In this document: in pieces, positions 15,167 to 36,450 of the stretch
How positions within the stretch are numbered: the first letter of the stretch is position 1
Layout of the letters: the number at the start of each line of letters is the position of its first letter
Source of the DNA: Chloroflexi bacterium HGW-Chloroflexi-9
Lineage (GTDB): Bacteria > Chloroflexota > Dehalococcoidia > UBA2979
Direction of reading: 5' to 3'
Assembly: GCA_002840675.1 (NCBI GenBank)
Contig: PHBR01000002.1
Coordinates: 1 to 57,034, forward strand
Length of the DNA: 57,034 bases
Translations under genes and position numbers: made by a program
The notes under the pieces: model-generated
What the model saw: only the letters and a program-made list of their open reading frames with translations
Databases searched by the model: none
What the model was told of the DNA's origin: nothing

Positions 15167-15196
15167 GCCCGTCGGCGTGTTGTCCGTCCGTATCCA

Positions 15197-20058: not shown

Positions 20059-20331
20059 TCAGGCGAGCAAGGCGCGGGCGGCTTGCTGGTCGCGGAAATA
20101 CAGGGCGTTGATCTCCGCGAACCGTGTCTCTCCCGGCGGGAGCTCTTCCATCAGATAGATGGCGGAGTCGGGACACGCGGGCACACACGCGCCGCAGTCA
20201 ATGCAGCCATCCGGGTCGATGAAGCACATTCGGTCGACGCCTTCTTCGACGTGGACGCATTGCACGGGACAGATGTCGAGGCACATCAGGTTCAGGTGGT
20301 CGAGGCAACGCGAGGAGATCACGTAGGGCAT
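20059..20331 (-). CDS. Ferredoxin with two Fe-S cluster motifs (7Fe/8Fe type)
   Basis: 90 aa. Contains CLDICPVQC and CIDCGACVPACP motifs. Confidence 0.85.
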   Translation of the reverse strand: MPYVISSRCLDHLNLMCLDICPVQCVHVEEGVDRMCFIDPDGCIDCGACVPACPDSAIYLMEELPPGETRFAEINALYFRDQQAARALLA

Positions 20332-20354
20332 GTGAGGTTCTTAACGGTGAGTGC

Positions 20355-21167: not shown

Positions 21168-21175
21168 ACCTCGCC

Positions 21176-22870
21176 TTAGTCCAGCGGCCCGCGGCGGTTG
21201 CGCTGCCGGGGGCGGTTGCCCTTCACGGCATCTGGCTCCTCGCGCTTCGGGGGGGTGCGGGCCTCGTCCTGCATGGAAGGCAGGGCATCGGCGCTCCCGT
21301 CGCGCCGTGCCTTCTGGTGGTCACGGTAGTGATAGGTGAAGGTCGCGCCGTAGCCGGTGGTCTTCGCTTTCGTGGCCCGCTCGGCCCAGTACTGCTCCTG
21401 CGTTTCGACGAATTGCTGCTCTTCAACGGGTGACGCATCGCGGGAGAGGATCTCTTCTCGCGGGAGGAAGAACGCCTGCCCAATCGGTGCATCGCCAACG
21501 ATACTGAACGTGAGGCCGGGCTTCAGCACATACCAGCAGGCCAGGACCTGGGACTCACCGTCCGTCTGGACACGCGTGGTGAGAGGCGTCACGAGCGGCC
21601 GCACGATGTCGTTGAACAACGAGGTGACGACGGTGTCGACGCCGTCCGGTGTCACGAACAGGTATGCGGAGCGGATGCCGATCACACCCGGTGGAGCGTT
21701 CGCCCCGGCAAACAGTGCGGTGAGCAGGGTGCGCGCGGACGCCTCGTCGTACGCGCCGCTGTGCTCCGTCAGCGTGATGGCGGCGCCGTCGATGTCGCCG
21801 GGCTCTCCAGCGCCGATCCGTGCCGTGAACGCGGGGAGACGTTGCCCCAGCTCATCCGCGACATAGAACGTGATGAGCATCTCACCACGGTCCCGCATCA
21901 CCACCTGAGCGGATTCCGTGGGCGCGAGGGGCGGGTAGAGCAGGGCACCGAAGCGGTGGACGTCCTCCACCACCGGGCAGAAGCGGGTCTGCTGGGGCAG
22001 CCAGGCCCGGCGATTCTCGTGGGTTGGGTGACGGCCGAGGCCACCCCGCAAACCAGCCGACACCACACCGACCTCCAGTGCCGGCGCGGCGACCGATTCG
22101 GCGGCGTGCGGCGTCCTCGGAGCGGGGAGGGTGTTGGTGCCGGGCGCCAGATCAAAGAGGCGGAGCGTGACTCGGGGCACGAACAGCACCTGGCCGAGCG
22201 GCGTGTCGTGGGTGAAGGAGATGGACTCGCCCCGCTCCAGGGGGAAGCGGAACTCTGTGTTCTGCGGGTACCAGTCGGTTTCGACCAGACAGTTGAAGGA
22301 AGGAATCCCGTCGGGACGAGCCCCGTTGGGGGGGATCATGCAGAGGGAGTCCCACCCATCCGGCGTGATGAAGTTGTACGAACTAAGGAAGCCGAACTGC
22401 CCGGCACTACCGGGCATGATGTTGGTGGTGATCGCGTCAACGATCAGCTCAGCTTCCTTGGCTGAGATGCTCGCGTGGCGGTCGAGGTAGACCACTTCCT
22501 GATTGCCGAGCCCGCCCCAGCCCGCCGATCCGCCGATGCGCACAGTGAACACGCGCATCGGGCGGGAGTCGGGACCGGCAACGAACATCGTGAACAGGAA
22601 ATCGCCGGTCTCCAGCAGCCGGGCTTCGATCGACTCGCCCGGATGCAGCGGTGGATACACCAGCACACCGCTTTCGGTTGCGGCCCGGAGCGCAGGGTGC
22701 AAGAAGGGAGGTGCCTGGATCGTGTCCGGGAGCCGGGCGCGCTCTGGGCGTCGCCCCACGTCGCGCCTTCGGTAGTTGGGGACGAGTTTGACGTGCATGC
22801 GAACCTTCGGGAATCGCACGAGGTCAAACGCAGGGCGATCCGGGCTGACCGTAGTGTCGTGGTCCGCCAT
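21176..22870 (-). CDS. Protein of unknown function, tandem duplication of the same unassigned domain
   Basis: 564-aa ORF. The N-half carries GVLVYPPL, NFITPDGWD, VETDWYP, PLGQVLFVPR. The C-half starts near 22081 and carries ENRRAWLPQ, GALLYPPL, LFVTPDGVD, PIGQAFFLPRE. An alternative start at 22798 (MHVKLVPNYRRR) aligns with the start of the 270-aa paralog. Confidence 0.7.
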   Translation of the reverse strand: MADHDTTVSPDRPAFDLVRFPKVRMHVKLVPNYRRRDVGRRPERARLPDTIQAPPFLHPALRAATESGVLVYPPLHPGESIEARLLETGDFLFTMFVAGPDSRPMRVFTVRIGGSAGWGGLGNQEVVYLDRHASISAKEAELIVDAITTNIMPGSAGQFGFLSSYNFITPDGWDSLCMIPPNGARPDGIPSFNCLVETDWYPQNTEFRFPLERGESISFTHDTPLGQVLFVPRVTLRLFDLAPGTNTLPAPRTPHAAESVAAPALEVGVVSAGLRGGLGRHPTHENRRAWLPQQTRFCPVVEDVHRFGALLYPPLAPTESAQVVMRDRGEMLITFYVADELGQRLPAFTARIGAGEPGDIDGAAITLTEHSGAYDEASARTLLTALFAGANAPPGVIGIRSAYLFVTPDGVDTVVTSLFNDIVRPLVTPLTTRVQTDGESQVLACWYVLKPGLTFSIVGDAPIGQAFFLPREEILSRDASPVEEQQFVETQEQYWAERATKAKTTGYGATFTYHYRDHQKARRDGSADALPSMQDEARTPPKREEPDAVKGNRPRQRNRRGPLD

Positions 22871-23144: not shown

Positions 23145-23600
23145 TCATGCGTTGAGAGCTTCGGAGGTCGATGCACCGAAGCACCGGTGGCGGACCCAGA
23201 CGACGCCGGCGAGCAGCGTGCCCGCAAGGATGGACACGCCACCCACGATCACAAGGATGGGCGGCAGACCGAACAGAACCTCCGCCAAGATGCCAAGAGG
23301 CATGAGCAGTCCGGCAAGCGTCAATCCGCCAATGGCAGAGCGCTGACCGACCGTCCCGGGCATGTGGGGGAGCAGGAGTCCGATGACGATGTTTACCAGC
23401 GAGAACAGCGCCCCGTGCACATGAGCGAGCCGTGTTTCGAAGTGCGTCCCTTCCGCGTAACTTGCTGCCCACTCCTCCGCATCCGGAGCGAAGTCACGCA
23501 GATAGATGAGGACGAATCCCATCACCATGAACCCGGCGAGGAAGATGAGACCGGCACCGATGTTGTGTGCACCGGTGGACAGTGAGGCACGATTACGCAT
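23145..23600 (-). CDS. Four-TM membrane protein with conserved-looking His motif
   Basis: Start at MRNRASL (23600), with GGAGA 7 nt upstream. Four hydrophobic segments; RLAHVHGALF motif. Confidence 0.6.
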   Translation of the reverse strand: MRNRASLSTGAHNIGAGLIFLAGFMVMGFVLIYLRDFAPDAEEWAASYAEGTHFETRLAHVHGALFSLVNIVIGLLLPHMPGTVGQRSAIGGLTLAGLLMPLGILAEVLFGLPPILVIVGGVSILAGTLLAGVVWVRHRCFGASTSEALNA

Positions 23601-23655
23601 CCGGCGGTCTCCGTTCTGCAGCCTCAACTTCTCCCTTTTACGTGCGGCCTCATTT

Positions 23656-24114: not shown

Positions 24115-24667
24115 ATCGTCTCCAGCTTCGTCATCCGCACCAGGTGGTGGGCGGCGGCGGTGAGCTTGAGGCAGAGTTCGTTCCGCGCCCGACCGAGGTA
24201 GCACAGCTTGCGCGGCCCCCGACGGTCTTTCCCCAGCCGAAGACCTCCTCCACCCGCTTGCGCCGCCGCTGGCTCACCACGTAGCCCGAGTGCCGCGTCG
24301 TGCGCCCATCGATCGCGCTGCGGCGGTTGCGGTTGTTCTGGGCAACGTGCGGGGTCACTCCGCACTCCCGCAGTCCCGTCACGAAGTCGCGCGTGTCGTA
24401 GCAGCGGTCCGTGCCCAGCGTGCTCCGCCCGCCCCCGCCCCGACCGCCGGCGCCGGCGGTCGAGCATCGCCAGCGCTGCCGTCCGCTCTGCGGTCCCGTG
24501 GCCAGCATCAGTTCCGCGTCCACCGCCAGGCCGTGGCGGTTGTCGGTGAGCACGTGCCCCAGGTAGCAGAGCTGCGTCGCCTGCCCACCCTTCTTGAAGA
24601 GCCGCGCGTCGGGGTCGGTCGCGTACGTCAATCTCGGACTTCGCTGCTCTCCTTTCGGGGGCGCCAT
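24115..24667 (-). pseudogene. IS5/IS1182-type DDE transposase remnant (C-terminal part, multiple frameshifts)
   Basis: Pieces lie in two frames: TDPDARLFKKGGQATQLCYLGHVLTDNRHGLAVDAEL, then TAERTAALAMLDRRRRR, then TLGTDRCYDTRDFVTGLRECGVTPHVAQN..RRSAIDGRTTRHSGYVVSQRRRKRVEEVFGWGKTVGG, then RKLCYLGRARNELCLKLTAAAHHLVRM. The N-terminus is missing. Confidence 0.6.
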
Positions 24668-24699: not shown

Positions 24700-26058
24700 T
24701 CAAATTGCCGACCCGTGGAGCCTCCGGAGCGAGCGCACGTACCGCCTCGCGGCGACGGCGTTCAACGCGGCAACGGCGGCGGCGACGAGGAGTGCGACCG
24801 CGGTGAGGATGCCTGCGGCGCCCATCAATCCCCGCGTCACCTCGCCGATGCTGTCATCGACCAGCGGCGGGAACACCCGGAACGGCCAGGCGATGATCAG
24901 GAGGACGAACGCGCCGGTCAGCCAGTTCTCACCGACGACCCGCCCGATGAGGAAGCGCTGCAGGACCACGTGCGACATCGCGATCAGCAGCGGCGCCACA
25001 AACCCCAGCGCCAGCATGTGCCGCGTGGCTCCGGTCTCGTGCAGCGTGACGGGAACGCCGCCCGTGAGGACCAGGACCGCCTGCACGGAGAGCGTGACCG
25101 CATAGACGACCAGGGCAAACCACGCCACCGGCACCAGGACCTGGGCGCGGTGTGGGCGGCGTCGCCACGACCTGACCGCTCGTGCAATGTCGAGCGCCCA
25201 CGTCGCCCAGAACAGGCCCGCGGCGAAGAGTAGGTCACCGGCGGCAGCCAGGGCCGGGAAGCCGGGCAGGCCGAACCCGGTGCTTCCGACCGCCGAGACG
25301 ACGAGGCCGACGTTGACGAGGCCCCAGAGCACACGCTGCCGTTCGACCGGCACCGGGGGCAGGCCCAGGTGCCCCACGAAGGCACGGAGCGCTACCGCGA
25401 TGGTGACGTTGATGACGAAGCCACGCAGGAAGAACTCTGCCATCAGATGTGATTCATCGAACGACGTCGCCCCCGACGAGAGGTTCCGCGAGGCGACGAG
25501 TTCGGCCAGCGCTGCCGCGACGAGCCACACGGCCCCGGTCCGGAAGAAGAGTGGATGGAGGTCGACCCGCAGCGGCCGGGCCGGCCGGATCCTCAGGACA
25601 ATGGCTACGAGCAGCAGCGCTCCGGCAACCATCGAGGCCGCACCGGCCACCACCATGACCTGCCCGGCCACATCGATGAACCGTCCTGTTGCCGACGCGA
25701 TCGCGCCCCCGCCGAGAAGGGACAGCACGAGCACACGAGAGGTGAGGGGCACGGGCGGGCGGCCGTTCAGCCGCACGATGAACTCGAAGAGGAGCACCAC
25801 GATGAAGACGGCGAACCATCCCCATAGTTGTAGTTCGCCATGCGCCTGGACGGTGGCGGACCATTGGTCTCGCGGGACGCCGGCCTCAAGTGCTGCGATC
25901 ACGCCAAGCGTGAGCCCAGCGGTTGCGGCGAGCACGAGCGAGGCGGCCATCGCCGCGGCGGGGAACCAGAGCCGCGGCGGCATGAGCCGCTCCTCCCCCG
26001 CCGGGGTCCGCACGGCCACCACCGGAAGCGGGGTCGGACCACCGCCGCTCATCATCAT
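24700..26058 (-). CDS. NnrS-like polytopic membrane protein (copy 1)
   Basis: 452 aa with about 12 hydrophobic segments. VQAHGELQLWGWF and ATRHMLALGF blocks. Paralogous to 29861..31273. NnrS assignment is from memory of the His-containing TM motifs. Confidence 0.55.
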   Translation of the reverse strand: MMMSGGGPTPLPVVAVRTPAGEERLMPPRLWFPAAAMAASLVLAATAGLTLGVIAALEAGVPRDQWSATVQAHGELQLWGWFAVFIVVLLFEFIVRLNGRPPVPLTSRVLVLSLLGGGAIASATGRFIDVAGQVMVVAGAASMVAGALLLVAIVLRIRPARPLRVDLHPLFFRTGAVWLVAAALAELVASRNLSSGATSFDESHLMAEFFLRGFVINVTIAVALRAFVGHLGLPPVPVERQRVLWGLVNVGLVVSAVGSTGFGLPGFPALAAAGDLLFAAGLFWATWALDIARAVRSWRRRPHRAQVLVPVAWFALVVYAVTLSVQAVLVLTGGVPVTLHETGATRHMLALGFVAPLLIAMSHVVLQRFLIGRVVGENWLTGAFVLLIIAWPFRVFPPLVDDSIGEVTRGLMGAAGILTAVALLVAAAVAALNAVAARRYVRSLRRLHGSAI

Positions 26059-26099
26059 CGCTCAACTCCAGCCAGGAGCGCCCGGCGACGCCCGTCGGG

Positions 26100-26480
26100 C
26101 TACTTCGCCGTCGGGTCCGCCAGCGTCAGCAATAGCGTCGAGTCCTCAACGGCCTCGACTGAGTGGCGCACGCCGGAGTCGATAGCAATAAGCCGACCGG
26201 ACTTCACGTCGAGTTCGTCACCGCGCACCCAGGCCCGGACGTGACCATCGAGGACCTGGACGGTCACCGCCCCCGGCGCGGCATGCTCCGCGAGCCGGGC
26301 GCCAGCGTGCAGATGTGTGAGTACGACACTGAGGCCGCCCTGACGGACGAGCGTCACCCCACGCCGGTCCTGACCCGGAGCCGCCGAGCCGTGCAGAGCC
26401 GTTACCGCCTCCGCGAGGTCGATTGCGAGGTGCTCGGCCGAGAGATCGTGGGTCCGCAGGTAGGTGTGTCCTTCGGGCAT
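26100..26480 (-). CDS. Cupin-domain protein (copy 1)
   Basis: Start at MPEGHTY (26480), GGGAG 7 nt upstream. Beta-barrel-type sequence (LHAGARLAEHAAPGAVTVQVLDGHV). Paralog of 48470..48886. 41 nt upstream of NnrS-like copy 1. Confidence 0.6.
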   Translation of the reverse strand: MPEGHTYLRTHDLSAEHLAIDLAEAVTALHGSAAPGQDRRGVTLVRQGGLSVVLTHLHAGARLAEHAAPGAVTVQVLDGHVRAWVRGDELDVKSGRLIAIDSGVRHSVEAVEDSTLLLTLADPTAK

Positions 26481-26557
26481 CTGTGGGCTCCCATCCACGC
26501 ACTCGGATGCACCCGAGCGAACTGTTCTCATTATCGTGCCCGCGTGCCCGCTGCCGA

Positions 26558-26573
26558 TGTAACGAAAGTCACT
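26558..26573. promoter_or_regulatory. CRP-type palindrome, box 1
   Basis: TGTAA-CGAAAG-TCACT in the divergent intergenic region, centred ~85 nt upstream of the cupin ATG. Confidence 0.4.
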
Positions 26574-26813
26574 GCTCGCGGCGGACGCATGCAGTCACCT
26601 GTGAGAGGCGAGACGCTGCGGGTAAGGCTGCTCGGGGCGACCGAGAGGACCCGGACACCACGGTCCGATCACGGTGATGCCCACGAGCATACTGATCTCC
26701 AGCACACCCGGAACAGCGTTCCCTCCCGCCGTGACATGCTCGAACGGCGAATGATGAGGGTTCCCGTTGGCCGGGTGTGTCAGCACCTTACCGGCGACAC
26801 GCGAGGTAGCGTC

Positions 26814-27386
26814 ATGTCCCTCCCGGAACCGTTCGCACACCTCCTCCGGGAGCATGAACGCATCGCCGACGCCGTGGGGCGCGCTCGCGGGATCACGGAG
26901 GCTGCCGCCGAGTACGGGCGGCCGGACCTGGTGGCGGCCATGGTCGACGAACTGCAGCAGCTGCAGAGATTCATGTCGCAGGACCTGGCCTCACACATCG
27001 CCCAGGAGGAAGAGGCCCTCTTCCCAGCCTTCCTGGAACTCACGCAGGACCGCCGCCTCATCGATGAGTTGACGGTGCAGCACGACCGCGTCGGCGTGCA
27101 GCGTGAACTCATCAGCGGCATCCTGAGCGCCCTCGACCACCATCATGACGAGGTGGAGGTCGTTCGCGTTGGCCTCGCGGACAACCTCAGCCATGCCATC
27201 GGCGGCATCACGTCCGAGGTCCAGCGATCGCTGCTGGCTGGCGTGCGTCAGCTGGACTGGCTGCTGCAGGGTCACTTTGGCGACGAGGAGGACGACCTGT
27301 TCGAGCCCGGCGCCGAGGTCTTCTCATCGGAGCGCCTCGACAGCCTCGCCGCTCAACTGGAGGTCGTCCGCCGTCGATTCACCTGA
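26814..27386 (+). CDS. Hemerythrin/HHE cation-binding domain protein (1)
   Basis: Internal ATG at 26814 (MSLPEPFAHLLREHERI...). Spaced H/E motifs (REHERI, HIAQEEEALFP, QHDRV, HHHDE, GHFGDEEDDLF). Confidence 0.7.
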   Translation: MSLPEPFAHLLREHERIADAVGRARGITEAAAEYGRPDLVAAMVDELQQLQRFMSQDLASHIAQEEEALFPAFLELTQDRRLIDELTVQHDRVGVQRELISGILSALDHHHDEVEVVRVGLADNLSHAIGGITSEVQRSLLAGVRQLDWLLQGHFGDEEDDLFEPGAEVFSSERLDSLAAQLEVVRRRFT

Positions 27387-27415
27387 GCTCCAATGCGGGG
27401 CCCGGATGGCGTACG

Positions 27416-27637
27416 GTGATCTGCATGGTGGACAGGTTGCTCACTGAACTGGAACTGAGCGCGGACGAAGAAGCCTCGGTCCGTGATGCTCTCCTCCGCA
27501 TCGAGGCCGCACGCGGTACCGCCAGCCGCGCGGATCTTCGTCGTGCCCTCACGACCTACCAGGACGCACGCCTTGCCGGGCTCTGCCGAGAGGGCGCGCT
27601 TGAACTGCTGCTCGACGCACTCCGCCGCGCAGCCTGA
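27416..27637 (+). CDS. Small helical protein, unknown function
   Basis: 73-aa ORF (or from MVDRLL at 27425). No clear RBS. Confidence 0.3.
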   Translation: MICMVDRLLTELELSADEEASVRDALLRIEAARGTASRADLRRALTTYQDARLAGLCREGALELLLDALRRAA

Positions 27638-27653
27638 GTCTCCGATGTGCGGC

Positions 27654-27669
27654 GGTGACTTTAGTCACT
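27654..27669. promoter_or_regulatory. CRP-type palindrome, box 2
   Basis: GGTGA-CTTTAG-TCACT. The core GTGAC-TTTA-GTCAC is a perfect 14-bp palindrome. Centred ~100 nt upstream of the DUF2249 ATG. Confidence 0.45.
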
Positions 27670-27762
27670 GCCGGAGACCGTCAGACCCGGGAACCTGAGG
27701 CAACGCCGCACCCCGGACACCGTGTCGCGGCGGCACGAGGCGAGCACGCAAGGGAGCAGTCC

Positions 27763-28005
27763 ATGACCGACCCGACCACCGTCGATCTTCGCGGGATGGA
27801 ACCCCGCCTGCGTCACCCGCTGGTCTTCAAGACGTTCGACGGTCTGGCGCCCGGTGAGGCGCTCCTCCTGGTCAACGACCATGACCCGAAGCCGCTGTTC
27901 TATCAGTTTCAGGCCGAACGCCCCGGTGAGGCTGAGTGGGAACCTCAGGAGGCAGGCCCGGAGCGCTGGGTCATCCGCATCGTGAAGCAGGGAGCCGGCG
28001 GGTGA
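27763..28005 (+). CDS. DUF2249-type protein
   Basis: Internal ATG at 27763 with AGGGAG RBS. VDLRGMEPRLRHPLVFKTFDGLAPGEALLLVNDHDPKPLFYQFQAERPGEAEWE...WVIRIVK matches my memory of DUF2249. Confidence 0.65.
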   Translation: MTDPTTVDLRGMEPRLRHPLVFKTFDGLAPGEALLLVNDHDPKPLFYQFQAERPGEAEWEPQEAGPERWVIRIVKQGAGG

Positions 28006-28033
28006 CCGCCCCCTCCCCGAGTGGAGTAACACC

Positions 28034-28510
28034 ATGACCACGACACGACCGACCGACCCGCTACGGGCCGAGCACGACGGGCTGCGGCCACACGTCGACC
28101 GCCTCCGTGACCTGGGTGACCAGGCAGTGCAGGGTGGCGACATGATGGAACCGCTCCAGGCCTCCGTCGAGTTCCTCCACCACCACCTCCTCGTCCATGC
28201 CACGGCCGAAGAGGCCGTGCTGTATCCCCTCGTCGCTGACGTGCTGGGCGCGCCGCGGGCAACCGCAACCATGAGCGAGGATCACGCGCGCATCAAGGTG
28301 CTGGCAGCGGAGCTTGCCGACGTCGACGCAGACGACCGCCGATCCATCGCGCGGGTTGCGTACGGCCTGCACACATTGATCACCCTGCATCTCGAGAAGG
28401 AAGAGAAGGTCTACCTGCCACTGCTCGATGCATCCCTCTCGCATGATGCGGTGGCGGCGATGTACCAGCGGATGGAAGACGCGGCGGCCACGGCGCTCGG
28501 ACACGGATAG
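28034..28510 (+). CDS. Hemerythrin/HHE cation-binding domain protein (2)
   Basis: 158 aa. Motifs LRAEHDGLRPHV, FLHHHLLVHATAEE, EDHARI, HLEKEE. Confidence 0.7.
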   Translation: MTTTRPTDPLRAEHDGLRPHVDRLRDLGDQAVQGGDMMEPLQASVEFLHHHLLVHATAEEAVLYPLVADVLGAPRATATMSEDHARIKVLAAELADVDADDRRSIARVAYGLHTLITLHLEKEEKVYLPLLDASLSHDAVAAMYQRMEDAAATALGHG

Positions 28511-28554
28511 GCAACGCGTTTGCAGCCTCTTCGATCCGGGGGTCCAGGGCTCAG

Positions 28555-29241
28555 TTACGAGAGGTCGGTGAGGCGGTCGGGCGCCAGCAGTTCGATCTTG
28601 CCATGATGAACGCGGATCGCCCCCGCCTCCTCAAGCACCTTCAGTGCCCGGGCGACGACTTCACGGCTCGTACCGGCCATCTCCGCCAGCTCCCGCTGGC
28701 TGAGCCGTCGCGTGAGGTTGATACCCGCACCGACGCCGCCGTGCGGGGTCGAGGCCTGCAGCAGGATGCGTGCCACCCGCTCAGACACGTGACGGAACGA
28801 CAGGTCCTCGACGAGTTCAACCAGGTGGCGCATACGTGCAGTGAGCACGCGGATGATCGCGTCGGCCAGCCCGGGCACGTCCTCCAGGGCGCGGCGCATC
28901 GCGTCCGGCCGAATGACCAGGAGCGCCGAGGGCTCTACGACCGTCGCCGTGGCCGGGTTGGGTCCCCCGTCGAGTACCGCGACCTCGTTGAAGGAACCTC
29001 CGGGACCAACATGTCGGAGGACCTGCTCCCGTCCTTCGACCGAGACCTTCGAGATCTTCACGAGGCCTTCCCGCACGAAGAAGAGGCCCGCGCAGGGTTC
29101 GTCCTGTACGAAGAGCACCGTCCCGGGAGCACAGTCATGGGACACGGCCTGCCGCAAGAGCTGTGTCTGAGCCTCCGCCGGTAGCGCCTCGACCAGGGCG
29201 AAGGCGTGCAGGGGGGTACGGCCGTTGGATGCCTCGGTCAT
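28555..29241 (-). CDS. Crp/Fnr-family transcriptional regulator (no N-terminal Cys cluster)
   Basis: Start at MTEASNG (29241). cNMP-binding-like barrel (GLFFVREGLVKISK). C-terminal HTH LSQRELAEMAGTSREVVARALKVLEEAGAI. Confidence 0.85.
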   Translation of the reverse strand: MTEASNGRTPLHAFALVEALPAEAQTQLLRQAVSHDCAPGTVLFVQDEPCAGLFFVREGLVKISKVSVEGREQVLRHVGPGGSFNEVAVLDGGPNPATATVVEPSALLVIRPDAMRRALEDVPGLADAIIRVLTARMRHLVELVEDLSFRHVSERVARILLQASTPHGGVGAGINLTRRLSQRELAEMAGTSREVVARALKVLEEAGAIRVHHGKIELLAPDRLTDLS

Positions 29242-29532
29242 GCGGCTCACGTTACCGCGACCCCGGCAACGACGGCGAATATCTGGCAGCTCGGCAAGCC
29301 GTGTTCGTGCGCGGCGAGGGCCTGGCGGCCGAGGACAGCGCACGGCGGATCGAGGGTGAACTGGGCGAGGTGGAGTTCCACGGGACGTGCTTTGCGGAAA
29401 TCGACGGCGGCATGTGGGAGCACTGGCCAGGGCGACTTCTTCACATCGCCCGGCCCGCCATGACTCGGCGCTGGCTCGGGGATGTGAGCGTATCGTGGGG
29501 CGAGCAACGAACGTCCAGGGAGGCGGTCAAGC

Positions 29533-29868
29533 ATGATGGTGCGCTGCGGATGGACCGAGATCCTCGACCCGCATAGTCGTCAGACCATCGCGCGCGGACT
29601 CCTGTTCGTCCGCCACACGCCCTTGCCCTACCCGATGGAGGGTTGGTGGGCCGGCGAAATCATGTTCCTCCGCGGCGAAGGGGCGCTCGACCGGCTCAGC
29701 CGCGAGATCTGGGTGCTGGGCCGACGCCAGGGCTCCAACCAGTGCTGGATCCAGGTGACCTCGGTGGAGCCCGCGTGGGTGCCTTCGGGCCTGCGCGCGA
29801 CTGCCCACATCACGAGCTATGACGAGGAGTTCCCGGCGTTCATGAGCGAACTCGGGGGCGATGGCTGA
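29533..29868 (+). CDS. hypothetical protein, unknown function
   Basis: 111-aa ORF with GGGAGG ~9 nt upstream. Trp-rich, coding-like composition. Its stop overlaps the NnrS-like copy 2 start (ATGGCTGA). Confidence 0.5.
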   Translation: MMVRCGWTEILDPHSRQTIARGLLFVRHTPLPYPMEGWWAGEIMFLRGEGALDRLSREIWVLGRRQGSNQCWIQVTSVEPAWVPSGLRATAHITSYDEEFPAFMSELGGDG

Positions 29869-31273
29869 CCCGCAGGGCCGCGGCGGACGCCAGTTGGACG
29901 GGAGTGTCATGCGAGTGTCCAGCCGCGGCGGAGCCGGGCGCGGCCCGCACGTCGCGTTTGTTGCCGCCGCGCTGCTGTTCGCACTCCTCGGTGGACTGCT
30001 CCTTGCGCTTGCCCTGCCGATTGATGCCCTGGCGCGTGGCTCGACCGGCGGCCGCTGGACCGCATACGCACAGGTGCATGGACACCTGCAGACGGTGGGG
30101 TTCGTCGGGCTCTTCATCGTCGGGATGGCGTATCGCCTGCTGCCGGGATTTGCGGGCTTCACGCGCCTTCGCTTCCCTGGCCTGGTGTGGCCCTCGTTCT
30201 GGCTGCTCACCGGCGGCGTGCTGGCGCGCACCATCGGGCAGTCGGTGGCAACCTCCGCTCCGTTCGCGGCGATGATGGCGGGCGGCGCGGCAGCGGAGGC
30301 GGCCGGCGCGGTGCTCGTCGCGGTCAATATCGCCCCGATGAGCTGGCACGCGGCACGCGCGGGTCGACCGTTCGCACTCTTTTTCCTCGCGGGCACGGGC
30401 TGGTTCGTGCTTCAGGCCGTGCTGGGCGCCATCTGGCTCGCGCAACTGGCCGCCATTCGCGGCACCGTGCTCGCACAGGACCGCGACGGCCTGCTCGTCT
30501 TCCTCCAGTTGTTCGGCTTCCACCTGATGTTCATCCTCGGCGTTGGGATCCGGTCGTTCCCGGTGCTGTTCGCGGCCCACCCCGCGACAATGCGTCGCGC
30601 GCTGGCTGCCTGGGCGCCCGTGCAGGTCGGGATCGCGATGCTCGTCATCGGTGCACTGGTCGAGGCCTGGCGAGCGGGACGCGGCTGGGTGGCCGAGGAC
30701 GCTGGGGCGGCCCTCGCGGGTGTGGGCCTGGTCATGGCCGTGTCCCTCACGGGTTGGTGGCGCGCGCCGACGCGCGTACGACCGGCTTCCCGCCCGTTCA
30801 CCTACACGCTCCAACCCGCGATGGCATGGCTCGCAGTCGCCGGTTGCCTGCTGTCGGCATTCGCACTTGACGGCCTCGTTCGAGGCGGGGCGCCCACGGC
30901 CGCGCAGTGGGACGCGGTGCGCCACGTTGTGGCGATCGGCGTCGTCCTCATGACGATCGTCGGCATGGCACAGCTGATCGTGCCGGAGCTGGCGACCGAG
31001 CGACTGGCCGGGCGGCAGGGCGCCTGGCGGGGGATCGCCTTCGGCGTCGCGCTGTCGCTCGCCGTCGTCCTGCGATCGTTCCCGCGCCTGCTCCCCGTAC
31101 AACTGCAAGGAACATGGGTCTACTGGGGAATGGCGGTGGCGGCGCTCACAGCCATCGTCGTGCTTGCGCTGCTGGCGTTCTACTTTGCGCGCGGCGTGCG
31201 GAACCTCCCGGACGGCGCGGCGACGACGGGCGAGCGGCACGAGCGCCCCGGGCCTCCGCGTGAGGACTGGTGA
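29861..31273 (+). CDS. NnrS-like polytopic membrane protein (copy 2)
   Basis: 470 aa with about 12 hydrophobic segments. AQVHGHLQTVGFVGLFIVGM and VRHVVAIGVVLMTIVGM blocks. Alternative start at 29909. Confidence 0.55.
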   Translation: MADPQGRGGRQLDGSVMRVSSRGGAGRGPHVAFVAAALLFALLGGLLLALALPIDALARGSTGGRWTAYAQVHGHLQTVGFVGLFIVGMAYRLLPGFAGFTRLRFPGLVWPSFWLLTGGVLARTIGQSVATSAPFAAMMAGGAAAEAAGAVLVAVNIAPMSWHAARAGRPFALFFLAGTGWFVLQAVLGAIWLAQLAAIRGTVLAQDRDGLLVFLQLFGFHLMFILGVGIRSFPVLFAAHPATMRRALAAWAPVQVGIAMLVIGALVEAWRAGRGWVAEDAGAALAGVGLVMAVSLTGWWRAPTRVRPASRPFTYTLQPAMAWLAVAGCLLSAFALDGLVRGGAPTAAQWDAVRHVVAIGVVLMTIVGMAQLIVPELATERLAGRQGAWRGIAFGVALSLAVVLRSFPRLLPVQLQGTWVYWGMAVAALTAIVVLALLAFYFARGVRNLPDGAATTGERHERPGPPREDW

Positions 31274-31418
31274 GCGAGTAACCGCCACGCGGGCCGCGAC
31301 TGAGCCGGCCGCTCCTTCCCAGATGTGGAGGTGAGGTCGCACGCGAAGAACTGCTCGCGACCACGCCGCCCCTCGGTCACGCGGCGTGCTCGCACGTCCA
31401 GGACGTCCGGGGCCCCGC

Positions 31419-32411
31419 TCATGGCGTCACCACCACCCGGCCGGGGCGGAATCCGCTCTCGACGAGGCGGTGGGATTCCGCCGCGTCCGCCAGCGGCAGT
31501 GTCACGCCGATGCGCACGCGCAACGCGCTGGCCGCGAGCTGCTGGTTAATCAGGCGCGCCGCCGCGGCCAGCTCCACCGTGCTGGCGCCGCCGAGGACGA
31601 AGCCGAGCATGGTCGCGTCACGCGCATAGAACGGTCCGACCGGTAGCACCGGGCGCGCCTGCCCATTCGCCATCAGGATGATCGTCCCGCGCCGGGCAAG
31701 CACCGCGGTCGCAAGCTCCAGGTCGTGATGGCCGGAGGTGTCCCAGTACATCTCCACGCCATCCGGCGCGGCCTCGCGCAGCCGCGTTCCGAGGTCGGGA
31801 TCTCGGTAGTCGAACACGGCAGCGGCCCCGATCGAACGGCACCACTCGAAGTCGTCCTCGCGGGCGGTCGCGAGGACCCGCGCGCCCGCGGCGACGGCGA
31901 GCTGCGTCACGCAGCTGCCTACGCTGCCGCCCGCGCCGCCCACCACGATCGTGCCGCCCGCCCGCAGCACCCCCCGCCCGATGAGCCCGAGGTACGCCGT
32001 GGCGCCCCCGTGGAGGACCGCGACGGCCTCCACCGCCGGCACGCCGTCGGGCAGGTGGTACAGCCGCTCCGCCGGCACCACCACGTGGCGCGCAAACGAT
32101 CCCTGAAGGCCGGCCGTTCCCATGCTGTTGCACCACACGCGGTCGCCCACCGCAAACGCATCCGCGACGGAGGCGCCGGCGGCGAGGACGCTCCCGACGA
32201 GGTCGCGACCGATCACGTAGGGGAACGGGAGCCGGGCGCGGCTTGCCCCGGCACGCACGTACGTGTCGACCGGATCGACGACGAGCGCCTCCGTCTCGAC
32301 GAGCACGTCGGTGGCGCCGAGCGGGGGGACCGGCAACTCGCCCACGTGAATACACTCGGGCGGGCCGCCTTCGGTGATGTAGGCAGCGAGGGTGTGAGTG
32401 GGCTGCGTCAC
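31419..32411 (-). CDS. Zinc-type alcohol dehydrogenase / quinone oxidoreductase family protein
   Basis: GTG start at 32411 (VTQPTHTLAAYI...), preceded by GAGAGGA. MDR-family layout with GGAGGSVG nucleotide-binding loop. Confidence 0.8.
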   Translation of the reverse strand: MTQPTHTLAAYITEGGPPECIHVGELPVPPLGATDVLVETEALVVDPVDTYVRAGASRARLPFPYVIGRDLVGSVLAAGASVADAFAVGDRVWCNSMGTAGLQGSFARHVVVPAERLYHLPDGVPAVEAVAVLHGGATAYLGLIGRGVLRAGGTIVVGGAGGSVGSCVTQLAVAAGARVLATAREDDFEWCRSIGAAAVFDYRDPDLGTRLREAAPDGVEMYWDTSGHHDLELATAVLARRGTIILMANGQARPVLPVGPFYARDATMLGFVLGGASTVELAAAARLINQQLAASALRVRIGVTLPLADAAESHRLVESGFRPGRVVVTP

Positions 32412-32442
32412 GACTGTTCCTCTCTTGCACCGGGGCCGATGT

Positions 32443-33318
32443 CTACCGCTCTGCCACTGCTGGCCAGATGCCGTAGGTCGGCGTCCAGCCGAGGGCGGTC
32501 TTCGCCGCCGCGTTCGAGCAGCGGAAGGAGCGCGCCCTCGGCATCGCGGGGTCCCGCGGCGGTGCGGGGACACCGAGCATCGCGGCGAGCCGGTCCAGGT
32601 AGTCGCCGTTCCGGACCGGCTCGTCCGTGATGTTGAAGACCGAGCCCGCTGGCGCGCTATGCAGCGCGATGAGCGTCGCCTCCGCCATGTCCTCCACGTG
32701 GATGAAGGACACCCAGTTGCGGCCATCGCCCGCGACCGCCTGCTTGCCGTCACGCAGGCGCTCGATCACCGCATCCTGCGCCGTATCCGGGCCGACGAAC
32801 GAACCACCTCGGAGGATGGACCACGCCACCTGTCCGGGGTCGAGCGCGCGCACCATCGCCTCCATCGTCACCACGGCGTGCGCGGTCGCCGCGCGCTCCT
32901 CGCTCTGGTCGAACGGCGTCTCCTCGTCTAGCCAGCGGTCGCCGCCATCCGGATAGGCCATCACAATGCTCTGCTGCACGTAGCGCCGGACACCGGCCGC
33001 AACCGCGGCGGCGAGCAGACGCCGTGTGCCGTCGATGCGGAGCGCGGCGGTGGTGTTCGTCCCGTCCACCCCGGTCGCGCCTGGACGGATCGCGGTGGCA
33101 AGGTGGGCCGCGGCGTCGCAGCCGGCCATCGCCCGGCGTAGCCGCGCGGGATCGTCATGCAGTACGTCGCCCTCGACCAGTTGGACCCCGGGCAGCGCGA
33201 TCGCGTGCGCCTGGGCCACAGACCGCGCCAGCGCCACGACCTCATCGCCGCGCGCGAGGAGTCGCGGAATCAGAGCTCGCCCGTACACGCCCGTCGCTCC
33301 GGCAATGAAGACACGCAT
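32443..33318 (-). CDS. NAD-dependent epimerase/dehydratase (extended SDR)
   Basis: 291 aa with N-terminal MRVFIAGATGVYG Rossmann motif. Confidence 0.8.
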   Translation of the reverse strand: MRVFIAGATGVYGRALIPRLLARGDEVVALARSVAQAHAIALPGVQLVEGDVLHDDPARLRRAMAGCDAAAHLATAIRPGATGVDGTNTTAALRIDGTRRLLAAAVAAGVRRYVQQSIVMAYPDGGDRWLDEETPFDQSEERAATAHAVVTMEAMVRALDPGQVAWSILRGGSFVGPDTAQDAVIERLRDGKQAVAGDGRNWVSFIHVEDMAEATLIALHSAPAGSVFNITDEPVRNGDYLDRLAAMLGVPAPPRDPAMPRARSFRCSNAAAKTALGWTPTYGIWPAVAER

Positions 33319-33372
33319 CGCAATCGCCCTTCGGTCACTCCTACCCGCTTGCCGGGGCGGCCGCCGCAGCGG

Positions 33373-33864
33373 CTACGCCGGTGTACGCAGCGCCTGGCAC
33401 GTCCAGCCAGCGTACGGTCGCATGCCCGCGAGGTGCCCGCGCATTTCATGGGCGCTCTGACCAGCCATGACGCGGTCGATCACGGGATACACGATCCGCT
33501 CCTCCTTCAGGTTGTGCTCCCCGAGCAACTCCAGCAAGACGTCAAGCGCGCCGCGGACGCGTTCCGGTGCAGCGCCACCGACGATCTGCGCCTCGACTTC
33601 GTCGAGCGCATGCCAGATGTCTCCGTGCTCACGGAACATGACTGCGACCGAGGCCACCATCCTGCCTGTACGCAGTGGCGGGAAGAGGAACTCTTCTTCG
33701 AGGTAGATGTGCCGGCGCAGTGCGGCGGCGGCCGCCGCAAACGGTGCGGCCGCCACGGTCCCGGTTGCGAGCGAGGTACCCAGTTGCTCCAGACCCGCAT
33801 CGATCTCCACATGCTCGCGTTCAAGAGCAGCACTCAGGGCGAGATCGTCTGTCATGCCTGGCAC
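33373..33864 (-). CDS. Hemerythrin/HHE cation-binding domain protein (3)
   Basis: 163 aa. Motifs LEREHVEID, HIYLEEEFLFP, FREHGDIWH, EHNLKEE. Confidence 0.7.
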   Translation of the reverse strand: MPGMTDDLALSAALEREHVEIDAGLEQLGTSLATGTVAAAPFAAAAAALRRHIYLEEEFLFPPLRTGRMVASVAVMFREHGDIWHALDEVEAQIVGGAAPERVRGALDVLLELLGEHNLKEERIVYPVIDRVMAGQSAHEMRGHLAGMRPYAGWTCQALRTPA

Positions 33865-33916: not shown

Positions 33917-33932
33917 TGTGACTTCCGTCGCA
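33917..33932. promoter_or_regulatory. CRP-type palindrome, box 3
   Basis: TGTGA-CTTCCG-TCGCA, centred ~60 nt upstream of the ATG at 33864. Confidence 0.4.
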
Positions 33933-34200: not shown

Positions 34201-34626
34201 TCATCCAGTCCTGGCGCGCTTGCGTGGGGCCGGCCGAGGACGCTGCTGCTGCTCGAGCAGGTCTTGCAGCACGACTGCTTCGTTGTGCTCGGTGTCGCGT
34301 GCGCCGTAGAGCAGGGTCATGGGCTGCGTGCGCGCCCGCGCAGCGAGGTCGTCGAGGAGCACTGCGTGCTCCGGCGCCTCCAGCTCCGCCCGGTATCGCC
34401 GCTGGAACTCCTCCCAGCGGGCGGGGTCGTGGTTGAACCACTTCCGGAGCTCCGTGCTCGGTGCCAGCTCGCGGGCCCAGAAATCGATCTGGATACGCGC
34501 CTTGCTGATCCCGCGCGGCCACAGTCGGTCGACCAGCACCCGTTGCCCGTCCTCGGCCGCCGGAGGCTCGTAGGCACGCTTGATCAGGATCCTCGGTTGC
34601 CGCCTTGGCACGCTGTCCGCCTGCAT
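34201..34626 (-). CDS. DUF488 (YeaO-like) protein (copy 1)
   Basis: Start at MQADS (34626). VLVDRLWPRGISK...FWARELAPSTELRKWFNHDPARWEEFQRRY is typical of DUF488. Confidence 0.7.
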   Translation of the reverse strand: MQADSVPRRQPRILIKRAYEPPAAEDGQRVLVDRLWPRGISKARIQIDFWARELAPSTELRKWFNHDPARWEEFQRRYRAELEAPEHAVLLDDLAARARTQPMTLLYGARDTEHNEAVVLQDLLEQQQRPRPAPRKRARTG

Positions 34627-34803
34627 CCTCGTTACAGCACGAGTCCTCTCCCCGGGGTGGGGCAGACGTGCCGGCTGGCAGAACGTTCTATAACACTGGA
34701 GTCTACGTGGGAGGTCGGGCCCGGTCGCGGACAAAAGTCACAGCGCGCGTATTGCACGACCGCGAGAATGAGTTGCGGTATGCGTACCGACTGGCTGGAG
34801 TGC

Positions 34804-34822
34804 CGTTCCGTCGTACGGAACG
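34804..34822. promoter_or_regulatory. Perfect 8-bp-arm palindrome in a divergent promoter region
   Basis: CGTTCCGT-CGT-ACGGAACG between DUF488 (minus strand) and the PAS gene (plus strand), ~50 nt upstream of the PAS ATG. Confidence 0.3.
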
Positions 34823-34869
34823 CGTCACCTTGACCGGATGGAACGCGGGGGCAGGAGAGCAGGGCTGGG

Positions 34870-35349
34870 ATGACGGAAGACCTTGCGGAACTGATCTTCG
34901 AGCAAGCACCGGATGCAATTATTTTCGCGGATCTCGCCGGGGCGATACGCGCGTGGAACGCCGGGGCTGAACGGGTGTTCGGACACACCGCCGCGGAGGC
35001 GATCGGCCAACACCTCGATCTCATCATCCCGGAACAGTTTCGAGAGGCGCACTGGCGGGGCTACAGCCGGGCGCTTGCTGCGGGAGAGACGAAGTACCAG
35101 GGACAGGTCCTGCCCACCCGAGCGGTGCGTCGTGACGGTGAGACGATTTATGTAGAGTTGAGCTTCGCGATTATCCACGGTCGGGAGGGTGGTGGTGTGA
35201 TCGGCGCCCTTGCGCATGCGCGTGACATCACCGAGCGGTGGATTCGCGAACGCGAACAGCGGCGCGAGCTTCGAGACCTCCAGCAGCGTGCATCCGGTGA
35301 TACTCGGGCGACACCGCAGACAACCCATACGGGACAACCTCATTCCTGA
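34870..35349 (+). CDS. Stand-alone PAS-domain protein
   Basis: 159 aa. FEQAPDAIIFADLAGAIRAWNAGAERVFGHTAAEAIGQHLDLIIP...DGETIYVELSF is a canonical PAS layout. Confidence 0.75.
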   Translation: MTEDLAELIFEQAPDAIIFADLAGAIRAWNAGAERVFGHTAAEAIGQHLDLIIPEQFREAHWRGYSRALAAGETKYQGQVLPTRAVRRDGETIYVELSFAIIHGREGGGVIGALAHARDITERWIREREQRRELRDLQQRASGDTRATPQTTHTGQPHS

Positions 35350-35492
35350 TGCTCGTCACCTGCGCGGGCGAAGGTGGGGAAGGGTCACGTTGGTGGCGTC
35401 GTGGCATCACAGCGGGACCTGCATGCGCCGCCTGACACGATCCAATAGGCTCTTGCTGTACTCCTCGCGATACGGGATATGGAGGCCACGGG

Positions 35493-35984
35493 ATGTTCAC
35501 GCAGATTCTCACGACGCTCGACGGCTCGGAGTACGCCGAGCGAGCACTCACCTATACCCGTGACCTCGCGAAGATCGCGGGCGCGCAGGTCAACCTGCTT
35601 GCGGTGATCCCAACGGTGCATTCCGCGGGTGCTCCGGCCGCCACGCAACCCGAGGAGCACCGCGCGCAGGCTGCGCTCGCCTACCTGAAAGAGAAGGCCG
35701 AGGCACTGCATGACGCCGGAGTCCCGGATGTCGCAATGCAGATCCGCCACGGTGATCCTGCTGGTCTGATCACCCAGGCGGCGCGGGACCTGGGCGCCGA
35801 CCTCATCGTGATGAGCACGCAGGGCATTGGAGCCGACGGACGTTATGCGCTGGGCAGCGTGGCGCTCAAAGTGCTGATGACGGCGCCGTGTCCGATCTTC
35901 CTCGTGCGCATCAACAAGCCCGAGCCGCCGCGGTCGACCATCGAGGAGCGCTGGCAGGGAGAAGGCGGCGCGAACGTCGGCTAG
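35493..35984 (+). CDS. Universal stress protein (UspA family)
   Basis: 163 aa. ILTTLDGSEYAERAL at the N-terminus, and DLIVMSTQGIG...GSVALKVL at the C-terminus. Confidence 0.85.
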   Translation: MFTQILTTLDGSEYAERALTYTRDLAKIAGAQVNLLAVIPTVHSAGAPAATQPEEHRAQAALAYLKEKAEALHDAGVPDVAMQIRHGDPAGLITQAARDLGADLIVMSTQGIGADGRYALGSVALKVLMTAPCPIFLVRINKPEPPRSTIEERWQGEGGANVG

Positions 35985-36056
35985 GACAAGCGGGCGCGGA
36001 GTGCCCGCCCCACCTCGGCGTCGCGTGTCCGCCTGGATGATCCGGCTGGACAGCAG

Positions 36057-36350
36057 GTGGTGCGCATGAGCCCAGAAGTCACGAACGACGAGGCTGAGGA
36101 ACGCTACGAGCTCCATGTCGGGGGCTCGGTAGCCACCCTGCGGTACCACCTGCAGGGGAGCGAAATCGTCCTGGTCCACACCGAAGTGCCGCCGGCACTC
36201 GGCGGGCAGGGCGTCGGCACGCGGCTGATCCGCGCCGCGCTCGCCGACGCACGCGAGCGCGGTTTGCGGGTGGTGCCCGTCTGCCCGTTCGTGAAGGCGC
36301 ACCTGGCGAAGTACCCGGAGGAAGCGTCGTCGGTTGAGTCCGCAAGCTGA
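36057..36350 (+). CDS. Small GNAT-like N-acetyltransferase (YjdJ/Acetyltransf_CG type)
   Basis: 97 aa: ERYELHVGG..ATLRYHLQGSEIVLVHTEVPPALGGQGVGTRLIRAALADARERGLRVVPVCPFV. Confidence 0.65.
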   Translation: MVRMSPEVTNDEAEERYELHVGGSVATLRYHLQGSEIVLVHTEVPPALGGQGVGTRLIRAALADARERGLRVVPVCPFVKAHLAKYPEEASSVESAS

Positions 36351-36450
36351 GGTGGCCCGGACAGTGCGGTGACTCGCCCTCTCGGCTGGCCCGCACACGG
36401 ACCCGCGGCACCTCGTTGCCTGCGTCGGCCCGGCCGATGGACGGCCGCCT

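Follow-up and report, generated by a model that had tools for sequence, protein, structure and literature searches.

Whether a dense group of genes for hemerythrins, a DUF2249 protein, a cupin and two membrane proteins of about 12 transmembrane helices, arranged around a regulator of the Crp/Fnr family, works as one system, and what that system may serve, is the question raised by a locus of Chloroflexi bacterium HGW-Chloroflexi-9 (contig PHBR01000002.1 of assembly GCA_002840675.1). The window, meaning the whole stretch of DNA analysed, comprises 57,034 nucleotides (nt), and the locus occupies nt 24700–33864. An earlier note on this DNA had listed ten open reading frames (ORFs) here and had related NnrS and hemerythrin-like proteins, each singly, to nitrosative stress and Fe-centre repair. 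All ten ORFs are found at the coordinates it gave. A tie of the genes as a unit to nitrogen oxides is supported in related genomes, where the same gene families stand beside clade II nosZ, Rrf2 and cupredoxin genes, and by a palindromic box at three promoters of the locus.

We lean towards the view that the genes of the locus make up a single regulon and form an accessory module that serves nitrogen-oxide (NO/N2O) metabolism or defence. This is probable because relatives place the cluster beside nitrous-oxide reductase genes. The 12-helix protein encoded at nt 24700–26058 (minus strand) is called copy 1 in the following, and the one encoded at nt 29909–31273 (plus strand) copy 2. L-numbers (L001, L002, L007, L074 and so on) denote the related loci in other genomes.

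The Cluster in Related Genomes

The search for a conserved neighbourhood shows that the same families recur around homologues elsewhere, one pair even as a gene fusion. The GTDB species representatives contain 65 related loci, nearly all in metagenome-assembled genomes of Dehalococcoidia and other Chloroflexota, with a best match of 62%. ENA sample ERZ27247358 contains relatives of 84–96% identity. A census of 68 non-redundant loci was made with home-made hidden Markov models (HMMs); since many of the contigs are short, the counts are minimum values. Rrf2 genes were counted in about 18 of these loci, cupredoxin or multicopper genes in about 14, cupin genes in 9, hemerythrin in 7, DUF2249 in 6, and Crp and nos genes in 5 each. 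The clustering exceeds chance.

The link to nitrous-oxide reduction is closest in two loci. L002, the neighbourhood of a copy 2 homologue, carries, in this order, Crp, cupin and 12-helix genes; a 385-residue membrane protein gene and DUF2249; a hemerythrin gene; and cupredoxin, Rrf2, nosYFDL and nosZ. Its NosZ is of the Sec-dependent clade II type (766 bits), and its Rrf2 protein shows the motif C-x6-C-x5-C, as is usual for members that bind a cluster. In L007 a gene of the copy 1 type closes a cupredoxin-nosZLDFY operon, beginning 4 nt after nosY, and after it comes a gene of a short-chain dehydrogenase/reductase (SDR) family that is also present in the window. Other copy 1 homologues lie near genes for Rrf2, hemerythrin, peroxiredoxin, an iron repressor or a Nar-type molybdoenzyme; in L075 and L076 the neighbours are AhpC/peroxiredoxin and iron regulators.

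Two further kinds of neighbour were seen in the related loci. In the Dehalococcoidia loci L026, L030, L031, L035, L025 and L058, a 12-helix gene and an Rrf2 gene stand beside a gene for a protein of 435–490 residues, which joins an N-terminal cupredoxin to a two-domain multicopper oxidase. The other is a multi-helix family of 380–385 residues without a Pfam family, encoded beside a 12-helix gene and DUF2249 in L002 (nt 11361–12518) and L001 (nt 15111–16253). It also occurs in L053, L024, L028 and L062, is absent from the window, and has the invariant motifs RHGGLMVVGF and YDAV.HAFFIGF. Its match to the copy 2 family (70% probability, E = 4e-5) covers helices 9–12 only, and is only suggestive of a further oxidase homologue.

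The Crp-type Regulator and Its Predicted Box

The regulator gene (nt 28555–29241, minus strand) encodes 228 residues. Its assignment to the Crp/Fnr family is upheld by the cNMP_binding (76 bits) and HTH_Crp_2 (60 bits) domains. The best solved relatives are Mycobacterium tuberculosis Crp and Corynebacterium GlxR (E = 3e-27), with DNR weaker at 2.7e-15. The cAMP cassette, FGEL...PRTSSA in the M. tuberculosis protein, has become FNEV...PNPATA, and the phosphate-binding Arg at the position of Escherichia coli R82 is lost; the change is kept in five orthologues. Cyclic AMP is thus unlikely as the effector, and we rejected it because of the loss of this Arg. It had also been noted that the N-terminal Cys cluster of Fnr is missing, and indeed the regulator has only two Cys, neither of them conserved in the orthologues. 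With neither the usual cAMP binding nor Cys for an Fe-S cluster, the protein might sense a gas or redox signal.

The recognition helix, (S/T)REVV(A/G)RAL, is invariant in the five orthologues and reads SREVVAR in the window. The DNA-contact residues of CRP are kept, and therefore a TGTGA-type box is expected by the rule of Rodionov 2005 (PMC1274295). A palindromic box of the form GTGAC-N4-GTCAC was found. The window has 11 such sites against 3.9 expected, a number reached in 0 of 100 shuffles. Three of them fall within 2.5 kb of intergenic DNA of the cluster. Box 1 (GTAACGAAAGTCAC, nt 26559–26572) lies in the divergent promoter region between the cupin and hemerythrin 1. Box 2 (GTGACTTTAGTCAC, nt 27655–27668), whose arms are perfectly palindromic, lies about 95 nt upstream of DUF2249. 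Box 3 (GTGACTTCCGTCGC, nt 33918–33931) is 54–67 nt upstream of hemerythrin 3. Near box 1 there is a sigma-70-like promoter on the minus strand (-35 at nt 26557–26552, -10 at nt 26535–26530), and the box centre is about 42 nt upstream of the implied start, the position of a class II activator.

The boxes precede the co-oriented groups into which the genes fall: cupin–copy 1, divergent from hemerythrin 1–orf73; DUF2249–hemerythrin 2; and hemerythrin 3 followed by an SDR and an alcohol dehydrogenase gene, with the Crp-type regulator among them. L002 has the box before cupin–12-helix, in the divergent region of DUF2249 and hemerythrin, and before nosZ. Further relatives carry it before DUF2249 (L001) and before hemerythrin (L053). 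Blind counting of 4096 palindromes across 46 intergenic regions from three genomes put this box first, with 7 matches against 1.03 expected (p = 1e-4, uncorrected). The Crp-type regulator thus appears, from the sequence, to control the cluster via the predicted box. It may activate the box-bearing units when nitrogen oxides appear or oxygen falls.

Two other patterns were tried. The Fnr/DNR box TTGAN6TCAA has 8 matches against 5.7 expected in the window, none of them at the locus, and was rejected. A first, asymmetric guess at the box, with 3 mismatches allowed, gave 289 matches against 336 expected. Away from the cluster, a GTGAC-N4-GTCAC box with one mismatch (nt 13621–13634) lies about 100 nt upstream of a 156-residue acidic ORF without a Pfam family (nt 13062–13532), and an exact one (nt 53442–53455) lies inside a methyltransferase gene.

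Family and Fold of the 12-Helix Proteins

NnrS, a membrane protein that contains heme and copper, belongs to regulons of Rhodobacter and Vibrio that respond to NO. The earlier note had called copy 1 (452 residues) and copy 2 (454 residues) paralogous and NnrS-like. The two are genuine paralogues by sequence comparison: BLASTP aligns 417 residues of the two at 27% identity (E = 3e-9), and a comparison of the family profiles gives 99.9% probability and E = 8.6e-35. The likely start of copy 2 is nt 29909, which gives a protein of 454 residues as in the homologues; an ATG at nt 29861 is also open.

The NnrS-like label is valid at the superfamily level only, because neither protein reaches the Pfam NnrS model; judged by the refuting condition that the earlier note had set, the NnrS call fails for both. 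Against this model (PF05940), copy 1 scores 6.6 bits (E = 5.7), below the gathering threshold of 28 bits, and copy 2 has no NnrS match in the Pfam scan. The only Pfam match of copy 2 is COX1 with 21.4 bits, below its gathering threshold of 34.8; copy 1 has no COX1 match and belongs to no Pfam family. The relatives give a clearer picture when scanned singly: NnrS is matched by 19 of the 26 members of the copy 2 family (best E = 2.7e-12) and COX1 by 13 of the 26, and NnrS is matched by 2 of the 17 members of the copy 1 family (1.7e-8).

The AlphaFold2 model of copy 1 (pLDDT 85.8, pTM 0.87) contains thirteen helices, twelve of membrane-spanning length. All 41 Foldseek matches to this model in the PDB at E ≤ 1e-3 are subunit I of oxidases or of nitric oxide reductase (NOR). 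The best TM-score, 0.71, is to the cbb3 oxidase subunit CcoN; NorB scores 0.60 and COX1 falls within 0.60–0.71. The structural matches to CcoN and NorB span about 460 aligned columns at 9–14% identity. By family profiles and the model, copy 1 and copy 2 belong to divergent sister families within the superfamily of heme-copper-oxidase homology. The window contains no COX2, NorC or CcoO gene.

To the left of the locus, a 160-residue four-helix protein without a Pfam family is encoded at nt 23145–23627 (minus strand). It has a RLAHVHGNLF motif, of which HVHG resembles helix 2. A reading as a single-unit oxidase homologue is not supported, with profile-profile probabilities to the 12-helix families of 1% and 0.4%. 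An exhaustive search returned 143 representatives of its homologues, mostly stand-alone and of 135–160 residues; one is encoded directly upstream of a 12-helix gene in L019.

Conserved Histidines and Possible Cofactor Sites

The catalytic subunits of heme-copper oxidases (HCO) and NOR have a set of six His for two hemes and CuB/FeB, of which neither family here keeps the full number. The copy 1 family has four invariant His (H73, H230, H347 and H363) and the copy 2 family two (H57 and H339, numbered from the start at nt 29909). The adjacent His-His pair of the helix-7 type is absent from both family alignments, as is the CuB/FeB His triad. By the model and the positive-inside rule, H73 and H347, which lie 10 residues into helix 2 and 8 residues into helix 10 respectively, are placed near the outer face; H230, at the end of helix 6, and H363, in the inner half of helix 10, are placed near the cytoplasmic face.

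Oxidases hold their low-spin heme near the outer face. The pair on helices 2 and 10 (H73/H347 in copy 1, H57/H339 in copy 2) would likewise be the ligands of one low-spin heme b near the outer face, an arrangement by analogy with the oxidases and with the proposal made for NnrS. At the inner face, the extra pair of copy 1, H230/H363, may form a second site for a metal or heme. The mapping of these His to ligands rests on topology, because the profile of the copy 2 family matches no PDB chain even at E = 10.

DUF2249: Fusion to Copy 1 and Loss at the Left Edge

The DUF2249 gene (nt 27763–28005, plus strand) lies 28 nt upstream of hemerythrin 2. Its 80-residue product matches PF10006 over the full length of the model, with 100.4 bits against a gathering score of 29.5, so that the family call made earlier is secure. 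DUF2249 adjoins hemerythrin also in L002 and L074. In five copy 1 orthologues, of 63–74% identity, a DUF2249 domain is fused to the C-terminus. A cytoplasmic DUF2249 partner would dock at the inner face of copy 1, as the C-terminal fusion in the orthologues suggests.

The domain has been linked to the heme-copper oxidase superfamily (Pei et al. 2014, as cited in PMC11218638). In the literature, DUF2249 proteins are induced in, or required for, the control of denitrification in Haloferax and Thermus. The only experimental data on the domain concern nitrate respiration and denitrification.

The closest relative, L074, is collinear with window nt 32632–24621 at 94.3% identity. There a DUF2249 protein of the AAGREPF subtype, the same subtype as in the fusions, is encoded by a separate gene 59 nt downstream of copy 1. 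The next gene encodes a third oxidase-fold paralogue of 397 residues (98.6%, E = 8e-16 against the copy 2 profile). The part of L074 that is missing from the window (nt 8188–11838) holds this third paralogue and two radical-SAM/SPASM genes of the AhbC/AhbD/NirJ kind; one matches TIGR04053 (432 bits, AhbD-like), and the other is AhbC/NirJ1-like. Since radical-SAM genes of the AhbC/AhbD kind adjoin the cluster in L074, heme-modifying enzymes are linked to it.

The homology between the window and L074 ends at nt 24621. At this point a 5′-truncated ORF for an IS5-type DDE transposase (nt 24131–24667, minus strand; weak DDE_Tnp_1 match, E = 1e-3), the left breakpoint of the locus, abuts the remnant of a second DUF2249 gene. 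The remnant (nt 24621–24641, minus strand), recognised by comparison with L074, consists of a ribosome-binding site and about 7 codons, with the start ATG changed to AAG. Read from the two sequences, the element that left the transposase remnant removed both the DUF2249 partner of copy 1 and the third paralogue. The window locus is thus a decayed version of a larger locus, because the homology to L074 breaks at the DUF2249 remnant and the transposase. The idea that the locus is borne on an island has little support: the transposase remnant at the left edge is the only mobile sign, the locus is collinear with L074, and at a G+C content of 0.62–0.73 in the window it does not deviate from the rest.

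Hemerythrins, Cupin and Small Proteins

The three hemerythrins named in the earlier note are encoded at nt 26814–27386 (hemerythrin 1, plus strand, 190 residues), nt 28034–28510 (hemerythrin 2, plus strand, 158 residues) and nt 33373–33864 (hemerythrin 3, minus strand, 163 residues). Their Pfam scores of 45, 60 and 64 bits all exceed the gathering cut-off of 25.3 (PF01814). An alignment of these three with three proteins from related loci, six in total, shows the di-iron ligands of the H-HxxxE-H-HxxxE pattern complete and invariant (H14, H61, E65, H90, H154 and E158). All three also have weak NCBIfam matches to RIC/YtfE/DnrN, with 17–31 bits against cut-offs of 205–300. These scores lie far below the equivalog cut-offs, and the hemerythrins were rejected as RIC/YtfE proteins; the Pfam scan found no N-terminal domain of the ScdA/RIC type in them. 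The three di-iron proteins may bind or turn over O2 or NO, or protect Fe centres.

The small cupin of 126 residues (nt 26100–26480, minus strand; also given 26480/26531) matches Cupin_2 (PF07883) with 33 bits against 27.2, and solved cupins at E = 8e-9, the closest of them being the uncharacterised cupins 5j4g and 5j4f. Both the cupin call and the 41-nt spacing upstream of copy 1 agree with the earlier description, and the two genes are probably in one operon. Cupin orthologues directly adjoin 12-helix genes in about 9 loci. A paralogue of the cluster cupin, with the common pattern YxRTHxL...EH..xGP, is encoded far from the cluster at nt 48470–48886 (plus strand).

Two small ORFs had been described as coupled to copy 2, which is correct for orf111; orf73 lies between hemerythrin 1 and DUF2249 (nt 27416–27637, plus strand). 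The latter encodes a conserved helical protein of 73 residues without a Pfam match, and its homologues in L074 (70 residues), L001, L053 and L062 are often beside Crp or Rrf2 genes. The orf111 gene (nt 29533–29868, plus strand), directly upstream of copy 2, has the composition of coding DNA, with a third-position G+C of 0.84. It encodes a small all-beta protein of a very rare family, with only 5 clusters among 5.8e9 proteins. Homologues stand upstream of 12-helix genes in L001, L028, L053 and L074, and C5, C71 and H92 are invariant. The structural model is weak (pLDDT 64), and none of its Foldseek matches is significant (best E = 0.11). The cupin and orf111 could be soluble partners, each of the 12-helix protein in its own gene pair, equivalent to DUF2249.

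Enzyme Genes and Flanks

Two enzyme genes follow hemerythrin 3. The first (nt 32443–33318, minus strand) encodes, by family match, an NAD-dependent epimerase/NmrA-like SDR. A gene of this family comes after the 12-helix gene of the L007 nos operon, and in L001 one lies between two hemerythrin genes. The second (nt 31419–32411, minus strand), the last gene of the hemerythrin 3 unit, encodes a protein of the Zn-dependent alcohol dehydrogenase/quinone oxidoreductase type (ADH_N, ADH_zinc_N), with a 330-residue orthologue in L074.

The right flank (nt 34201–38013) encodes a DUF488 protein, a stand-alone PAS protein, a universal stress protein (USP), a small GNAT protein and a Rieske-plus-FAD reductase. 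DUF488-PAS-USP is common to the window and the 84%-identical relative L001. Because of this synteny with L001, these flanking genes may share a stress context with the cluster. A second DUF488 gene lies at nt 49579–50169.

Left of the four-helix protein, nt 20059–22870 (minus strand) holds co-oriented genes for a 4Fe-4S ferredoxin (nt 20059–20340), a 270-residue protein and a 564-residue protein, with DUF6065 matches. A ferredoxin gene also adjoins a second Crp gene in L001 and a 12-helix gene in L068. Two IS3-type elements, each with HTH_Tnp_1 and an rve integrase core, are at nt 18649–19837 and nt 54389–55446, both on the minus strand.

What the Module May Serve

Several observations weigh against an accessory nitrogen-oxide module. 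No nir, nor, nos or nar gene was found among the window proteins scanned, and the flanks encode USP, PAS and Rieske/FAD reductase proteins. Many homologous loci have none of the partner families, and the fused copy 1-DUF2249 orthologue of L005 has unrelated neighbours. The multicopper neighbours in other genomes score 61–79 bits, far short of the cut-off of 296 for NirK, and their identity as such is not established. Counting all 4096 patterns leaves the box statistic modest. The region upstream of orf111–copy 2 yielded no box, so that membership of copy 2 in the regulon is not established. Docking of DUF2249 is suggested by the fusion, conserved residues and topology, and heme binding and the second site of copy 1 by conserved residues and topology.

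The missing reductases and the stress genes of the flank would suit a general oxygen/hypoxia or oxidative-stress module, to which we give a limited chance. The hemerythrins, which classically bind O2, would then bind or sense it, the oxidase-fold proteins would scavenge O2 or peroxide, and the Crp-type regulator, closest to mycobacterial Crp/GlxR, would answer to hypoxia or energy state, not to nitrogen oxides. The kinship to M. tuberculosis Crp over DNR favours this, as do the AhpC/peroxiredoxin genes and iron regulators beside copy 1 homologues. It is opposed by the degenerate cAMP pocket, by the restriction of experimental DUF2249 data to nitrate respiration and denitrification, and by the relatives, whose repeated links to nosZ operons, cupredoxins and Cys-containing Rrf2 are both physical and through the box. 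Those same relatives could point to a more direct part in respiration, which we hold to be doubtful: four-His copy 1 would be a transmembrane cytochrome b that carries electrons between periplasmic copper enzymes and either the cytoplasm or the quinol pool, or an unrecognised NO reductase, and its type would replace modules of the NosR/NosGH type in Chloroflexota, serving NosZ, cupredoxins and multicopper oxidases. The position after nosY in L007, the oxidase/NOR fold, the placement of the two invariant His pairs, judged by helix, on opposite sides of the membrane, the cupredoxin or multicopper neighbours in about 14 loci and the AhbC/AhbD-like heme genes of L074 are in its favour. Against it, the CuB/FeB triad is absent, nos genes accompany only 5 of the 68 loci, the window has neither nos nor nir genes, and the encoded partners (cupin, DUF2249 and hemerythrins) are cytoplasmic; moreover, NnrS of Vibrio cholerae reportedly does not itself remove NO, a result attributed to Stern and co-workers in 2013.

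The membrane proteins might act like Vibrio NnrS, limiting iron-nitrosyl damage with no part in catalysis or electron transfer, and the hemerythrins like RIC/YtfE/DnrN, the whole locus serving only to repair Fe centres or protect the iron pool; for this there is a slim chance. The weak NCBIfam matches of the three hemerythrins and a DtxR-type iron repressor near a copy 1 homologue agree with it, and nnrS is co-regulated with the di-iron gene dnrN in NO regulons, by NO sensors according to comparative genomics (Rodionov 2005, PMC1274295). The distance of these matches from the RIC cut-offs and the absence of a ScdA/RIC-type domain match speak against it, and it does not account for the fusion to DUF2249, for the additional His pair in copy 1 or for its placement in a nos operon. 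The accessory nitrogen-oxide module is the reading that we retain.

Why the Locus Matters

NnrS-type proteins and DUF2249 are among the commonest unknowns of denitrification and NO-stress regulons. The fusion names DUF2249 as a physical partner of an oxidase-fold protein. Further handles on the biochemistry are the subtype whose second His pair lies at the inner face, the cupin and orf111 as dedicated partners, and the Crp subfamily for which a box is predicted.

Clade II nosZ is present in Dehalococcoidia and other Chloroflexota, which are regarded as N2O sinks. The electron route to NosZ in Chloroflexota and their handling of NO are unsettled, and the gene 4 nt after nosY is an obvious candidate. 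There is a small chance that four-His copy 1 with DUF2249 is a new functional class within the superfamily of heme-copper oxidases, a two-site transmembrane redox protein serving periplasmic copper enzymes. If so, the class would either take over from NosR/NosGH in feeding electrons to clade II NosZ or itself reduce NO, and the cupin, orf111 and hemerythrins would be its cytoplasmic partners in redox or ligand handling.

Comparison with Known Systems

The statement that the locus is not a described system was too strong, since nnrS-dnrN co-regulation (PMC1274295) and the link between DUF2249 and HCO (PMC11218638) are on record. We found no paper on this combination of genes, and none on the two Chloroflexota families, on the four-His subtype, on the cupin and orf111 as partners, on evidence of the fusion, or on the Crp subfamily and its box.

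Copy 1 and copy 2 share with NnrS (PF05940) about 12 transmembrane helices, family-level homology via their relatives, the His pair on helices 2 and 10, and the association with NO-type regulators and di-iron proteins. They differ from it in failing the model, than whose 371 positions they are 60–80 residues longer, and copy 1 has in addition two more invariant His, with DUF2249 either fused to it or encoded next to it. In the NnrS literature that we found, the cupin and orf111 do not occur as partners. CcoN and NorB are alike in overall fold, and the His pair on helices 2 and 10 would be placed like their low-spin heme ligands. Unlike them, the proteins here show only 9–14% identity, lack the CuB/FeB triad and are encoded without genes for subunit II, NorC or CcoO.

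RIC/YtfE/DnrN have in common with the window hemerythrins a hemerythrin-like di-iron four-helix domain and co-occurrence with NnrS-type genes under NO regulators. The window proteins differ in scoring far below the model cut-offs and in being single-domain proteins without a match to the N-terminal RIC-type domain.

The regulator shares with the NO-responsive regulators DNR, NnrR and HcpR the Crp/Fnr architecture and the lack of a Cys cluster as in Fnr. The HcpR boxes TTGAC-N4-GTCAA and GTAAC-N4-GTTAC resemble the 5-N4-5 box here, and the predicted HcpR regulon includes hemerythrins (PMC1274295); in contrast to that regulon, no hcp gene is present among the window ORFs scanned. GTGAC-N4-GTCAC also resembles the core of the Crp site TGTGA-N6-TCACA (PMC1274295), whereas the Fnr/DNR box TTGAT-N4-ATCAA is not the one here. 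From actinobacterial Crp/GlxR the subfamily of the window regulator differs by replacement of the Arg that contacts the cAMP phosphate.

DrpA and DrpB of the nitrate-respiration element of Thermus thermophilus resemble the present system in the DUF2249 domain, in expression dependent on a Crp-family regulator (DnrT) and in the link to nitrogen-oxide respiration. DrpA is reported to be periplasmic, whereas the fused DUF2249 here follows a predicted cytoplasmic C-terminus. The partner there is DUF1858, and here it is oxidase-fold proteins and hemerythrins.

A further comparison is with the HCO homology proteins. Pei and co-workers are said to have defined these families in 2014, with NnrS among them, and to have described three evolutionary units. 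The proteins reportedly have the 12-helix oxidase fold without the six-His set and mostly two conserved His, for which one heme was suggested; their genomic context is said to be denitrification and NO detoxification. The proteins of the present locus agree with this group in the 12-helix oxidase fold without the full six-His set, and the DUF2249 association has also been noted for it (PMC11218638). The present families are set apart from what is reported of that group by the four-His subtype, the fusion, the Crp subfamily and its box, the partnership with the cupin and orf111, and their restriction to Chloroflexota.

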